IMG/VR virus record: IMGVR_UViG_3300026549_000038
Span: 96,193 to 160,192 of that record
Source: a virus
Lineage: Duplodnaviria; Caudoviricetes
Length of the DNA: 64,000 nt
Direction: 5' to 3' (one strand)
Part shown: piece after piece, positions 15,412-46,489 of the stretch
Layout of the letters: every line of letters begins with the position of its first letter
Position numbering within the stretch: the stretch's first letter is position 1
Translations under genes and position numbers: made by a program
Notes under the pieces: generated by a model
The model's input: the letters and a program-made list of their open reading frames with translations, nothing else
The model's database searches: none
Told to the model about the DNA's origin: nothing

Positions 15412-15621
15412 TTACTGATTGACTACTGCCACGTTTAACTTGGGGTGGTTTTCTGATATGTCTATAAATTTATTTTCAACCGCAACTTTGAATATAATCT
15501 CATTGTTTTCTATAACATAGGACATTATGGTTCCAACGGTATCGATTGGAAAGAGACAGTCACATTTAAAATGTAGTTTCTTTCCAATCATTTGTTTTGC
15601 TATAAACTCTTTAAATTGCAT
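15412..15621 (-). CDS. small hypothetical protein
   Basis: 69 aa, coupled to upstream gene (TGATG overlap). Confidence 0.7.
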   Translation of the reverse strand: MQFKEFIAKQMIGKKLHFKCDCLFPIDTVGTIMSYVIENNEIIFKVAVENKFIDISENHPKLNVAVVNQ

Positions 15622-16325
15622 CAGTTATACTCTTGTTGTTTGATTTTTTTGTGTTTTTTGGAAAGCTTTTCTTTCTTTGGGCTAGGCATTCTTTGAAACG
15701 AATCTCCGCTGCCCAGCTCACCGTTTTCTCCTGGAAGTGCTGGGTCGCCGGCGCCCATGGTATTCCCGGGAGTAGCTCCACCAGCATCTCCACATTCTTT
15801 CACAATATCAAGTGAGGACAGTTCTTTATAAAATACATTTATCAATTCTGGTGATATTTCATATACTGTTTCTTTTGTCATTCCAAATTCCTTCATAGAA
15901 GTCAGTTCTTCTTTCGGGTCGCACTTGTTAACAATTCTTTTTGTGTAATTGTCTATTTCAGAACTACCATCTATCGACGCCCAGTCTCCGCCAATCACTA
16001 TAGTTTTATCAACATTAGCCATATAGATATGTATAGCCCAATGCGGAGCAGTCACTTCGCCGGTTTGAACATTGTCTATGAAAGCAATGTAATTCTTGTC
16101 GTTGTCGATATTATCATAGTCATCTGGTTTTATTATTCCCAGCTCAGAATTGTCTTGTTTACCTGGTTGCTGTTCTGCAACAAAATTTTTGAGTTCTTCA
16201 AACCCATCAGAGAATGTAGACTTACTTTTAAATTTTTTAAAAATATCTGTGAGGTCTATACTTTTAATCATCTCTATAGGATCTTTAAAAATACTTTCTT
16301 TAATATAATTTACCAGCGATTTCAT
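15621..16325 (-). CDS. putative head-internal protein with C-terminal copy of capsid N-terminal motif
   Basis: MKSLVNYIKE leader; C-terminal ATPGNTMGAGDP...GSGD matches MCP ATPLNTMGMGNP...GSGD. Confidence 0.7.
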   Translation of the reverse strand: MKSLVNYIKESIFKDPIEMIKSIDLTDIFKKFKSKSTFSDGFEELKNFVAEQQPGKQDNSELGIIKPDDYDNIDNDKNYIAFIDNVQTGEVTAPHWAIHIYMANVDKTIVIGGDWASIDGSSEIDNYTKRIVNKCDPKEELTSMKEFGMTKETVYEISPELINVFYKELSSLDIVKECGDAGGATPGNTMGAGDPALPGENGELGSGDSFQRMPSPKKEKLSKKHKKIKQQEYN

Positions 16326-16394
16326 ATCTATTTGTTGAATTTTCGTTATAAAATAATAATCATAATTTTAATATATTAATTCAACGGAATAAAA

Positions 16395-32918: not shown

Positions 32919-34640
32919 TTAGATAACATCAACTCCGTCGCTGTCAACCATGAAGGTGAAGTATGACTGCTCTGGCCAGAAACCAGCGTCAACGATAGCA
33001 AATCTTGAGTTAACAAGAAGCTTCGGAGCCATAGTGCCTTCAGCGGTAATCTGAACGGTGTCAGCTAAGATATATGGCATGAAGATTACGCCCGGGTCGT
33101 TGCCCGTAGATTTTCTTCCGACACATATACGGCAGTCGTCCCAAGTCATGTAAGGGTCAACATAGAGGTTCAGACCTGCTACGGAACCAGCGAAATACAG
33201 ACTCTTGCTACCATCCTGTACAAGGGTGTTAGTCATAGGAGCGATTACAAATCCAGCTGCATCCTGAAGAGCAGACAGAATCTGAGTGTTAGTTACAACC
33301 CACTGACCTCTTCCCCAACGGCTTACGTTAGCGATAAGGTTAGCTGCTGCAAGAATACGGCTCATAACCCTTCTCTGAAGAGTGTGAGTGTTCTCAGCTG
33401 CGGTGTTCTGAGTAGCGTTCTTAACTGCGCCCCAGTTGGTAGCTGCATTAGTTCCATCGATGCCGATGAACTTCTTAGCTGCAGAGAAAGCAGACAGATT
33501 CTTGGTAGCTGCGGCACCAGCATTAGAGAAGTACAGGTTAAGGTCAACACCCTGATACTCTTTCTGGTTCTTAGCGTTGGTTACACCAAGACGGAATACT
33601 CTGTCGAGGATTCTGTTGTTGATTTCCTGAGAAATCTCGTTCTGCATAGCCTCGAGAACCTTTCCTACTACGTCAACTCCGTAAAGCGGCATATCCTGAA
33701 GCTGCTGACGAGTAACAGTACCAGTTACTTCATAAGCACCCATCTGAACGAGCTTAGTGAACATGCGTGCACCGATAGTGTTACCAACACCAGTCTCGTT
33801 CTGAGCCCTTGTCATAGGGTCATCACTTCCATTGAAGAAGTTACCGAATCCCTGAACGTGATCAGCGTTTCCTGATACGAGCTGAGGATCGCAAGCCTGA
33901 GCTGTCTGAGTACCGAGAACTGCAGATGCAGCGGTAGAAGACAAAGTTACGTTAGCGCTAAATACGTCAGCGATAGATACATCAGCGTTATCAGCAGCGT
34001 TACGAACTTTTACAACCTTAACGATCATACCGTTGTCGATACGGCTGAAACCAATGAAACTACCAGTGAATACACCAGCTGTACTAGTGAACACGATATC
34101 GTTACCTACAACGAAATCTGCTTTAGTCTTACCAGTAGCATATACAACATTGTACTTAACCTTAATATAAATAGGTTTGTTCTCTGCATCTGGACCAATA
34201 CCATCAACACCAAGAACTTCGTTTGCACGACCGGTCTTACCACCAGCATAAGGGGTATCCATGTAAGAAAGCATAGCCCAAGGGCCCTTTGAAGGGATAA
34301 CTGGAACGAGCTCAAGACCGATAGTCATAGCTGCGATTGTAAGAGCCATTGTCAGGGTTGACATTGGAATGTCACCTGAACCAACCTTATTTGTATAGAA
34401 ATCAGCTGCACCTGGGCCAGAAACCTCAGGATTCATAGGATTTCCCATACCCATAGTATTCAGAGGAGTAGCATAAATGTTCTGACTCACGTTGTTAGTA
34501 TTAGGCTGAAGGCCTTCATATACCTCGTGGTTCTTTGCATACTCACTCATCCAAGCAAGCTTACTAGCGTTCTCAACGCCGAGCTCTTCTTTGATAATCT
34601 GTGACCACTTCTGATCACCGTTTTCTGTAATGAACTTCAT
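32919..34640 (-). CDS. gp23: major capsid protein (T4 gp23-like)
   Basis: IGLELVPVIP, TRQQLQD, EISQEINNRIL, RWGRGQWVV, LYVDP, GVIFMPY, EGTMAPKLLVNSRFA; high-expression codon bias. Confidence 0.95.
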   Translation of the reverse strand: MKFITENGDQKWSQIIKEELGVENASKLAWMSEYAKNHEVYEGLQPNTNNVSQNIYATPLNTMGMGNPMNPEVSGPGAADFYTNKVGSGDIPMSTLTMALTIAAMTIGLELVPVIPSKGPWAMLSYMDTPYAGGKTGRANEVLGVDGIGPDAENKPIYIKVKYNVVYATGKTKADFVVGNDIVFTSTAGVFTGSFIGFSRIDNGMIVKVVKVRNAADNADVSIADVFSANVTLSSTAASAVLGTQTAQACDPQLVSGNADHVQGFGNFFNGSDDPMTRAQNETGVGNTIGARMFTKLVQMGAYEVTGTVTRQQLQDMPLYGVDVVGKVLEAMQNEISQEINNRILDRVFRLGVTNAKNQKEYQGVDLNLYFSNAGAAATKNLSAFSAAKKFIGIDGTNAATNWGAVKNATQNTAAENTHTLQRRVMSRILAAANLIANVSRWGRGQWVVTNTQILSALQDAAGFVIAPMTNTLVQDGSKSLYFAGSVAGLNLYVDPYMTWDDCRICVGRKSTGNDPGVIFMPYILADTVQITAEGTMAPKLLVNSRFAIVDAGFWPEQSYFTFMVDSDGVDVI

Positions 34641-34665: not shown

Positions 34666-34684
34666 TATTTATAAAAATAATAAT
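34666..34684 (-). promoter_or_regulatory. candidate late promoter of capsid gene
   Basis: Minus strand ATTATTATTTTTATAAATA, containing both ATTATTATT and the T4-like TATAAATA. Confidence 0.55.
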
Positions 34685-40489: not shown

Positions 40490-40572
40490 GATTTAATAAT
40501 AATCAATCAAGACACGGATCTAAATAAAGCGGCTTATAATAATTATTATTTTTATAAGTAAATTTATAAATC

Positions 40573-41130
40573 GTGAAAAAAGTAAATATACTAATAGGAA
40601 GATTTCAACCATTTACCTACGGACATCTTAAATGCGTAGAAGAAGCTTGGAAGAAATTGGGCGTTCAATCTGTAATAGTTATTATAGACACGCCAGAAAA
40701 TAAAGTAGATTCTAAACATCCGTTCCCAACATCGATGCTTCTGCCAGTATATAAGGAAGTTTTTAAAAGAAATGGAAAGGTTGCAGATATAGTTACATGT
40801 AATAATGCTAATATTGTTACAATCGGTGAGACTCTTCATAATATGGGTTATGAAATAGTTAGCTGGACTTGCGGAACCGATCGTATAGATTCTTATAAAA
40901 GAATGTCTGATAAATATCACAAAGATGCGTTTTTAGCTGATGATTTTCAAATGATTGAAATCAAGAGAACTGCAGAGGACATTTCTGCTACTAAGGCTCG
41001 TAAAGCTCTTGTTGAAAACGACCTCGACACCTGGAAAAAGATCACTCCGTTGTATAACCTTCGCGAAAAAATGGAAGGTAACAAAATTTTCAACGAGTTT
41101 AGAAATCAAATATTAAAAGTAGTTAAATGA
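40573..41130 (+). CDS. cytidylyltransferase-like (HIGH/TxGH) nucleotidyltransferase
   Basis: IGRFQPFTYGH, CGTDR, ISATKARK. Confidence 0.85.
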   Translation: MKKVNILIGRFQPFTYGHLKCVEEAWKKLGVQSVIVIIDTPENKVDSKHPFPTSMLLPVYKEVFKRNGKVADIVTCNNANIVTIGETLHNMGYEIVSWTCGTDRIDSYKRMSDKYHKDAFLADDFQMIEIKRTAEDISATKARKALVENDLDTWKKITPLYNLREKMEGNKIFNEFRNQILKVVK

Positions 41131-45009: not shown

Positions 45010-45021
45010 ATTATTATTATT
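45010..45021 (+). promoter_or_regulatory. candidate late promoter of protease gene
   Basis: ATTATTATTATT 25 nt upstream of ATG45047. Confidence 0.5.
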
Positions 45022-45046
45022 AAAAATAAATATAGATATTGAAATT

Positions 45047-46489
45047 ATGTCAAATAAAACATTTATATTTGAAACACTGAATGATGTTAAAGGAATGTCT
45101 GCAAAGAAAGACGGTGAGTTTATGACTCTTAGTGGTGTCTTTGGAGTTTGCGGAGTTCGAAACAATAACAATCGTGTTTATGAAACATCTAACTATTCAA
45201 AGATGGTTTCAGAAATGAAAAAACGAATCAAAGAAGAAGGTGGTATCCCTGGAGAACTTGAACATCCTCAGATGATGAACATTACTCTCGAAAATATCAG
45301 CCATAAAATTACTGATATCAACATAGACGAGAACGGCGTGGTTAGTGGTAGCATTACTTTGCTGAATACTCCAAAAGGAAAGATAGCTCAAGCTATTGTC
45401 GAAGGCGGACTTCCTCTTTATATTAGTTCTAGGGCAACTGGATGTGTCGATCAGAAGACTGGTGCCGTTACACTTGAGAGGCTTGCTACTTATGACCTCG
45501 TAGGATCTCCGGGATTCTCTCAGGCAAAGCTTCATCTAAACGAAAATCAGATAGCTGAATCAATCAATGAAAATATTTATTATATCACCGAAAAAGAAAC
45601 AAAAGAAAATAATACAGAACAAGATATGGATACAAAAGAAATTCTCGAAAGGCTCGAATCTCTTGAGAATACAGTTAAAGACCTGCAGCAGGAGAACGAA
45701 AAACTTAGAGAGAGCGCGAAAGATAACATTCAAACAATCGCAGAAGGAGTTCAAAGCTGGATCGTTGAAGAGTACAGCCCAATGATTCAAAAGTGGATCG
45801 TTGAAGAATACGAACCAGAGGCAAAGAGCAAAATCCTCGAAAGTGTTGATACTGAATCTATTATGAACAACGTTAAGACTATGATCTCTGAAAAGGTTGC
45901 TCCTGCAATCCAGGATTGGATCGTTGAAGAGTATAGCCCAATGATTCAGGGTTATTTAACTGAAGAATATAGTCCTGTTGTAGAAAAGTGGATCGTTGAA
46001 GAAATTGCTCCTGGTATTCAAAATTGGATTACTGAAGAGTTCAGTCCGGTTCTCGATGAGTATATGACAGAAAACATCAAAACTCAGGCTGCAAGTATTG
46101 TAACCGAAGCTATTAACGAAAGCAAGAAAAATAGTTTAAGTTCAATAGAAGATACATTGAAGCTTCTTGAGGGCATGGAAGTCACAAAACCCACATATCA
46201 ATCTAAGACCATTGTTACTGAATCAGCTAATGAGCCTATGTTCATTGCACAGATGCCTGCTGAACTCAGACCAAAGTGGGATATGGCTTCAAAAGATGTT
46301 AAAGAAAGCATCACTCGCAGAGCAAAACTTTACAATTTCAATAACGAAGGAGCAACTCAAAGATTCTGGGAAAGTATTAACTTTGATGAAATTAAACCAA
46401 CGAGTGCCGTTTATGAGGGGCTAGATCAGATCGAAGATCAAAGAGAGAGAATGATCCGTGAAAGTCTCCGTAAGTGGATGAAGAAGTAA
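45047..46489 (+). CDS. gp21: prohead protease (T4 gp21-like) fused to scaffold-like region
   Basis: RNNNNRVY, GELEHP, ISHKI, TPKGKI, ISSRATG, YDLVGSPG; C-terminal WIVEEYSP repeats. Confidence 0.92.
   Translation: MSNKTFIFETLNDVKGMSAKKDGEFMTLSGVFGVCGVRNNNNRVYETSNYSKMVSEMKKRIKEEGGIPGELEHPQMMNITLENISHKITDINIDENGVVSGSITLLNTPKGKIAQAIVEGGLPLYISSRATGCVDQKTGAVTLERLATYDLVGSPGFSQAKLHLNENQIAESINENIYYITEKETKENNTEQDMDTKEILERLESLENTVKDLQQENEKLRESAKDNIQTIAEGVQSWIVEEYSPMIQKWIVEEYEPEAKSKILESVDTESIMNNVKTMISEKVAPAIQDWIVEEYSPMIQGYLTEEYSPVVEKWIVEEIAPGIQNWITEEFSPVLDEYMTENIKTQAASIVTEAINESKKNSLSSIEDTLKLLEGMEVTKPTYQSKTIVTESANEPMFIAQMPAELRPKWDMASKDVKESITRRAKLYNFNNEGATQRFWESINFDEIKPTSAVYEGLDQIEDQRERMIRESLRKWMKK

Follow-up and report, generated by a model that had tools for sequence, protein, structure and literature searches.

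A module mirroring the N-terminal segment of the major capsid protein in giant phages is probably an undescribed head-assembly signal

The small protein and the head genes of a rumen giant phage

The DNA analyzed here, called the window, is a stretch of 64,000 nucleotides (positions 96,193 to 160,192) of IMG/VR record IMGVR_UViG_3300026549_000038. It belongs to a rumen giant phage that is present in bovine and sheep gut metagenomes. A small ORF on its minus strand holds the sequence ATPGNTMGAGDPALP...GSGD followed by a Lys-rich tail. The gene and the parts of its product are the following (arrows mark protease-type sites):

15621..16325, minus strand: small ORF P0001, 234 residues, consisting of a leader, an alpha/beta domain of about 165 residues, a protease-type site, a mimic of the N-terminus of the major capsid protein (MCP), and a basic tail
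16296..16325, minus strand: leader MKSLVNYIKE (residues 1-10) of the T4 capsid-targeting-sequence (CTS) type, with a putative cut after E10
15792..15806, minus strand: internal protease-type site I-V-K-E177↓C178, in the context ..DIVKE↓CGDAGG, putatively cleaved
15702..15776, minus strand: motif ATPGNTMGAGDPALPGENGELGSGD (residues 184-208), mimic of the N-fist segment of the MCP, found by alignments and profile comparison
15624..15689, minus strand: Lys-rich tail SPKKEKLSKKHKKIKQQEYN (residues 213-234), pI 10.1

The leader conforms to the T4-type CTS pattern, i.e. about ten residues, an L/I-x-E end and a small residue next (MKSLVNYIKE↓S). The leader pattern M-K-x-L/I-x-x-Y-I-x-E is found in 16 ORFs on the contig, the small ORF among them. 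At the internal site, E177 and C178 are invariant across the homologs of the small protein, and the site aligns with the leader/cleavage site MKSLxxYIKE↓C of the stand-alone members of the family described below. Cuts after E10 and E177 would give a predicted C-terminal product of 57 residues, with a mass of 5.9 kDa and a pI of 8.9. In the AF2 model of the small protein, residues 20-175 have pLDDT values of 70-85, a moderate confidence, and residues 178-234 values below 50; the module is predicted to be intrinsically disordered. No PDB match to the modeled N-terminal domain was found with Foldseek at E <= 0.001. Neither a Pfam nor a PHROG family was found for the small protein, and so no homology to IPI, IPII, IPIII, Alt, gp67 or gp68. 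The protein lacks the HK97-fold Gp23 body, its likeness to the MCP being confined to residues 184-208, which correspond to a region N-terminal to the Pfam domain of the MCP.

A HMMER scan of 1.8 billion representatives returned three full-length homologs (P0002-P0004, 44-47% identity). In these homologs, at 40-49% identity, the invariant part consists of the KE↓C site, the motif and a KKEK tail. Many proteins of 57-78 residues that match residues 175-230 only were found in the same scan. A word-based homolog search with the whole small protein returned only the protein itself, and tblastn of a phage collection with the whole small protein and with family member P0079 gave no matches. Another candidate, the 638-residue P0005 with seven matched stretches, was rejected as a repeated KatG-like artefact. 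Purifying selection acts on the small gene, as judged from a natural strain variant with 23 synonymous versus 11 nonsynonymous changes, one of which, D194N, shifts the motif towards the family consensus. Contigs from RNA libraries cover parts of the gene at 100% identity, for which DNA carry-over is a possible source. The gene adjoins an ORF of 1110 residues; the MCP gene is 18 kb away and the protease gene 29 kb. Relatives of the window phage likewise have the module gene near a homolog of the 1110-residue ORF; an IMG/VR search with the 1110-residue protein itself gave no match. A 69-residue ORF (15412..15621, minus strand) begins at the stop codon of the small gene through an overlapping TAATG-type junction, and its start, MQFKEFIAKQ, resembles a degenerate leader.

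The head genes and the promoter-like elements of the window are the following:

32919..34640, minus strand: MCP of the T4 gp23 type, 573 residues (Pfam PF07068, Gp23, E 6.9e-25; phrog_28442, E 2.5e-112)
34515..34640, minus strand: MCP propeptide (residues 1-42) ending in V-Y-E42↓G43, a putative maturation site by analogy with T4 gp23
34371..34472, minus strand: MCP residues 57-90, ATPLNTMGMGNPMNP...GSGD, the N-fist-equivalent segment just past the likely maturation site
45047..46489, plus strand: T4-type prohead protease, 480 residues, with a C-terminal extension (PF03420, E 3.4e-9; phrog_207, E 1.5e-40)
16346..16359, minus strand: promoter-like element TTATTATTTTATAA, ending 20 nt before the ATG of the small gene
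34669..34683, minus strand: promoter-like element TTATTATTTTTATAA, containing TATAAATA, 28 nt before the ATG of the MCP gene
40543-40557, plus strand: promoter-like element before the gene at 40573
45011-45025, plus strand: variant of the promoter-like element before the protease gene

Relatives of the MCP are found in Tenacibaculum phage PTm1, Sphingomonas phage PAU, Lak megaphages and LR7565xx huge phages, and 562 contigs of IMG/VR have an MCP of this type. The analogy for cleavage of its propeptide is the maturation of T4 gp23 (PMC9546572). In the closest MCPs the residues E42-G43-L44-Q45-P46-N47 are invariant, and N..GMG...P...GSGD is kept in all 12 MCPs aligned. Position 1 of the Pfam Gp23 profile corresponds to residue 88 of T4 gp23, and position 10 to residue 99 of the window MCP. 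From these coordinates, the stretch copied in the small protein (window MCP residues 57-90) is roughly equivalent to residues 66-88 of T4 gp23*, which form the 25-residue N-fist. Homing endonuclease genes flank the MCP gene, and no gp24-like paralog was found on the contig. A 249-residue ORF of Chryseobacterium phage MA9V-2 (175809-176555, plus strand), situated 3 kb downstream of the gene for the MCP, aligns with the MCP profile over the C-terminal half of that profile only (E 1.1e-22). From its sequence it could be a truncated paralog, possibly a vertex-related protein or a remnant beside an endonuclease gene.

The element TTATTATT(T)TTTATAA is present 20-30 nt before four start codons, as a variant at the protease gene, and nowhere else in the 64-kb window. 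At the MCP gene it includes the T4 late-promoter core TATAAATA, and we consider the element as a candidate late promoter.

A portable module that co-evolves with the capsid protein

When all six frames of the 160-kb contig are considered, the two-part motif is found only in the small ORF and the MCP ORF. The sequence-only reading had paired these two proteins, each with the motif after a likely protease site, and both the coordinates and the sequences agree with it. In both proteins the mirrored stretch begins a few residues past an xxE↓ site, so that cleavage would yield similar new N-termini. As a single pair, the likeness of the small protein and the MCP is borderline (BLASTP E 0.002 for one comparison, E 0.2 against all contig ORFs). 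Profiles give a clear signal: hhalign of the module profile with the profile of MCP N-termini yields a probability of 96% and an E-value of 1.6e-9, the module profile matches MCPs of other phages (E 1.7e-7 and 9.6e-5), and the MCP-family HMM matches ORF-299 of phage PTm1 (E 4.1e-6).

A family profile was built from the module alignment and used with a cut-off of E <= 1e-3. This search gave at least 365 protein clusters, of which 288 are small and 77 are longer proteins, carried by contigs of up to 410 kb, i.e. by huge phages. No names or Pfam matches were found among these 365 profile-found proteins. Compared with the family profile, the window protein reaches 87 bits (E 2.9e-19); it has the core motif, P-x-N-T-x-G-x-G-(N/D)-P ... 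G-S-G-D or G-S-E-P, and a K/R-rich tract after it. Architectures were counted for the 203 members that were retrieved: 114 are stand-alone modules, 74 have the module at the N-terminus, 7 at the C-terminus as in the window protein and 1 in mid-chain, and 7 are devoid of the strict core pattern. Stand-alone members consist of leader, E↓C, motif and basic tract, with no cargo besides the basic tail. Of the 196 members with the core motif, 191 have a basic tract (6 or more K/R in 12). In N-terminal fusions, an xxE site lies upstream of the module in 70 of 74 cases and downstream in 69 of 74, giving the layout upstream xxE, module, xxE↓S-(I/L)-(L/F), and then a domain of about 200 residues. Clustering of the 82 fused proteins by partner domain gave 18 groups, including nucleoside diphosphate kinase (NDK, E 4.6e-21), DUF6884 and DUF3008. 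As it is fused to about 18 unrelated partners and at either terminus, the module is portable.

Several variants of the architecture were observed. A DUF3008 domain (E 1.6e-11 to 5.9e-9) precedes the module in L172, L174 and L179 (IMG/VR records G025, G012 and G035, of LR756500-like lineages). This association suggests that DUF3008, for which we know of no function, is a domain of phage head proteins. In the largest group of N-terminal fusions (P0143, P0146, P0157 and relatives), C-x3-C (ECGEGC) and C-x2-C (CGKC) bracket the motif. With about 30 residues between them, these four cysteines could bind zinc and thereby loop the motif; Cys178 is the only one in the window protein. The permuted stand-alone members P0008, P0010, P0011, P0048, P0057 and P0067 start at the post-cleavage position (MCDF.. 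or METP..) and have a leader-like segment, MKSLKDYLKK, behind the basic tract at their C-terminus. The product of L014 9995-10666, from a relative of the window phage, combines a leader, the module and the basic tract with another, internal leader (MKDLKDFLKE↓S), which is followed by cargo. No module was found in the whole genomes of PAU, MA9V-2 and MaF61 with their own MCP N-termini and the family HMM, and pT24 has only a weak candidate, a 60-residue ORF at 71195-71389 (E 0.022 versus the MCP HMM). The literature on the motif, on DUF3008, on the CTS of jumbo phages and on the proteomics of Lak phages, as far as it was searched, and the family libraries gave no description of the module. The family is best classed as an undescribed variant among the head-targeting and core-protein signals.

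At the protein level, the module co-evolves with the N-terminal MCP segment encoded by its own genome. When 16 genome pairs were compared, a module's own MCP came first of 16 in 9 cases and among the top 4 in every case. None of 200,000 permutations reached the observed diagonal sum, which lies about 7.6 standard deviations above the mean, related genomes among the 16 not being independent samples. Module-module and MCP-MCP similarities are correlated (r = 0.74). For the window module, its own MCP ranks only fourth of 16 because the MCPs of the window phage, G001, G039 and the Lak phages share one variant of the motif. Several modules resemble their own MCP more than they resemble any other module, and within the PTm1 genome ORF-299 matches the PTm1 MCP with an E-value of 1.3e-9. 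Lak phages have GDPVP(A/F)G in module and MCP alike, and lineage-specific residues and spacing are mirrored in both proteins of LR756500, LR756502, LR745206, PTm1 and nine IMG/VR records. Shared descent cannot produce such a lineage-by-lineage likeness between two different gene families. The likeness of the peptide to the start of the mature MCP, which had been pointed out from this single phage, is thus conserved and follows the MCP of each genome.

A likeness without function, due to chance, to low complexity or to a patch recombined from the MCP gene, could be put forward from the weakness of the single pair and from the homing endonuclease genes beside the MCP gene. We give it hardly any weight. 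It is refuted by the profile-profile match, the invariance of the motif in homologs, the size of the family, the lineage-specific tracking in the 16 genomes and the purifying selection, and by the codons used in the two genes. The same codon is used at identical residues in 57 cases versus 68 +/- 5 expected, and in 84 versus 99 +/- 6 expected; in PTm1, serine and arginine are even encoded by different codon families in the module gene and the MCP gene. As codon identity is not in excess, neither gene conversion nor duplication is likely to have occurred recently, and the likeness is maintained in the protein sequences. Gene conversion via the homing endonucleases was rejected on the same test.

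Possible partners of the module during head assembly

The module is probably an undescribed head-assembly signal. For its mode of action, our leading but still tentative proposal, to which we give slightly less than an even chance, is that this portable unit, which lies between protease sites, uses whatever the MCP N-terminus binds, most probably the prohead core, and that a basic peptide remains. The small protein would enter the prohead, as its T4-like leader, the T4-type protease and the promoter-like element that its gene has in common with the MCP and protease genes suggest. The mimic would then take the site that the MCP N-terminal segment uses while this segment is still inside the prohead, most likely on the scaffolding/protease core, and the module would be a second code, for head targeting or anchoring. 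Cuts by the prohead protease after E10 and E177 would free the 5.9 kDa peptide with its MCP-like N-terminus, and the basic tail of the freed peptide could remain with the DNA.

The prohead core is favored as partner because only in the prohead is the copied segment internal, because the module resembles a removable tag placed between protease sites on diverse cargo, and because the PTm1 gene lies among core genes. In T4, residues 66-105 of gp23* are disordered, flexible and internal in the unexpanded head, where they probably touch the scaffolding core, and this region holds the head-length mutations A66D, A94V and G97S (PMC9546572). A66D falls within the copied stretch (about T4 66-88), and A94V and G97S just past it. 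On expansion of the T4 head, the N-fist goes to the outer surface, contacts four subunits and helps bind Soc (PMC9546572, PMC9958956). ORF-299 of PTm1 (AP019524.1, 216794-217627) has the portal gene on one side and the protease/scaffold and MCP genes on the other, the slot held in T4 by core genes 67 and 68. No Pfam family was found in ORF-299, for which a cut is predicted at LLE↓SYG. Its N-terminal ..IIDGHHKH.. stretch presumably recalls ParB/Srx-like nuclease folds.

These data bear on the sequence-only reading, which had proposed that the peptide docks in a groove inside the shell and acts as a second targeting or tethering code. Loss of the motif in homologs had been named beforehand as the result that would speak against it; the motif is invariant in the three full-length homologs, and the idea of a second code fits the portability of the module, its roughly 18 partners at either terminus and the N-terminal fusions lying between two xxE↓ sites. 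The groove inside the shell is not supported by the T4 alignment, which puts the segment at the N-fist, internal only in the unexpanded head and on the outer surface of the mature one. A partner on the inside is therefore more likely to be the scaffolding core than a shell groove. Placement of the peptide at the portal or at vertices, as had also been suggested, is pure speculation.

Several points count against docking on the core. The only scaffold candidate identified in the window phage is the C-terminal extension of the protease. The LR756500-like module proteins have DUF3008 first and no MKxLxxYIxE leader. In T4 the 10-residue leader alone suffices for targeting, so that a second code is not obviously needed. 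Stand-alone members have nothing but their basic tail as cargo, no gp23 mimic was seen in T4 gp67 and gp68, and the scans of PAU, MA9V-2 and MaF61 gave no module. A complex prediction with MCP residues 91-573 and the module gave an ipSAE of 0.00, which bears neither way on binding.

The peptide could instead act in the mature shell. After cleavage it would fold as an N-fist and fill sites free of an MCP arm (e.g. beside pentons or portal), or fill sites from inside, its tail holding the DNA. The mirrored segment is indeed equivalent to the N-fist and the new N-terminus would be similar in both proteins; the contacts of the T4 N-fist with four subunits (PMC9958956) could explain both the conservation of the motif and a co-evolution with the MCP body, and the contig was found to have no gp24-like paralog. 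We nevertheless regard docking in the mature shell as unlikely, given that the N-fist sites of T4 are on the outer surface whereas leader-bearing proteins are internal, that few sites would be vacant if the pentons are built of the same MCP, and that the module is often N-terminal on cargo between two cleavage sites, like a removable propeptide. Conceivable, though not likely either, is that the module is a structural mimic of the N-fist which competes with it or replaces it in the lattice, i.e. a capsid-assembly factor that evolves by copying its client. Such a mimic might complete N-fist sites at symmetry-mismatched positions (pentons, portal), or titrate the scaffold-MCP contacts that set capsomer angles and so help to set the very large head size.

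Two further explanations concern the protease and the capsid protein segments themselves. The motif could be a docking element on the P' side of the cut, an exosite or timer, decoy peptides competing for or pacing the maturation cleavage of the MCP. A T4-type protease is present, and the motif always lies 5-20 residues past an xxE↓ site, in MCPs and modules alike. This explanation appears improbable, as fifteen other leader-bearing ORFs of the contig have the site and no motif, T4 gp21 is known to require no more than a short site, and the motif, which the MCP keeps on maturation, shows conservation far past the site. Alternatively, modules could pair with MCP N-terminal segments in an in-register bundle or annulus under the capsomers, in which identity and not complementarity would be selected. 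It would account for sequences that mirror rather than complement each other, down to lineage-specific residues, in a segment that is G-, N- and P-rich and predicted to be disordered, and the amyloid-motif pairs of fungal and bacterial NLR/effector genes offer a parallel. We see little chance for such a co-assembly: prolines disfavor beta stacking, no structure or prediction supports it, and T4 is devoid of such a bundle.

Comparison with known systems and significance

How the heads of giant phages are loaded with proteins and how their size is set are poorly understood, and to our knowledge the only well-studied head-targeting code is the 10-residue leader of T4. The module is a second short element that can be recognized from sequence alone. 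Among huge phages of the Lak, PTm1 and LR7565xx types, it flags hundreds of proteins that lack annotation, including enzymes such as NDK, as probable head components, and its co-evolution with the MCP is indicative of a specific contact. It is carried by one cultured phage, Tenacibaculum phage PTm1 (ORF-299). If the module is a targeting tag, it could serve to load proteins into large capsids.

The closest parallel is the CTS of the T4 proteins IPI-III and Alt. Common traits are the 10-residue leader with its L/I-x-E end, a gp21-type protease in the genome, small basic products, and a tag shared by many unrelated cargo proteins. What differs is the second, longer element, a copy of the MCP N-terminus with a basic tract, which is stand-alone or at either end and co-evolves with the MCP; the small protein itself has no sequence relation to the T4 IP proteins. 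The copied segment corresponds to the N-arm/N-fist of T4 gp23* (66 to about 105), past the maturation site and before position 1 of the Gp23 profile, on a protein that lacks the HK97-fold body of gp23*. We know of no other T4 protein that carries a copy of the N-fist, and no copy of gp23 residues 55-115 was found in gp67, gp68, gp21, gp22 and gp24. The T4 proteins gp67 and gp68 are small prohead core proteins cut by the protease. A basic C-terminal tail is found in gp68 as in the small protein, and PTm1 ORF-299 occupies the gp67/gp68 slot; the window gene lies outside this portal-protease slot, and there is no sequence similarity. As gp67 and gp68 have no gp23 mimic, the analogy with the T4 core proteins is only positional.

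We know of no report that the head propeptides of phages phiKZ and SPN3US copy or track the MCP N-terminus. They are similar to the module in being N-terminal stretches present on many head proteins and removed by the prohead protease, as far as they are described in PMC5694885 and PMC7411985. According to work cited in PMC9546572, the scaffolding protein of P22-type phages binds the N-arm of the coat protein, and the MCP's N-terminal region is the scaffold contact in the procapsid. According to our proposal, the mimic would share this contact; the P22 scaffold is, however, the partner of the N-arm and not a copy of it.

A last observation concerns the relative of the window phage in which the module is followed by a second leader. 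Immediately upstream, L014 9369-9995 (plus strand) encodes a very acidic protein of 208 residues with Ser/Asp repeats, and this gene ends exactly at the start of the module gene. Its product may be a scaffold-like protein or a core partner.
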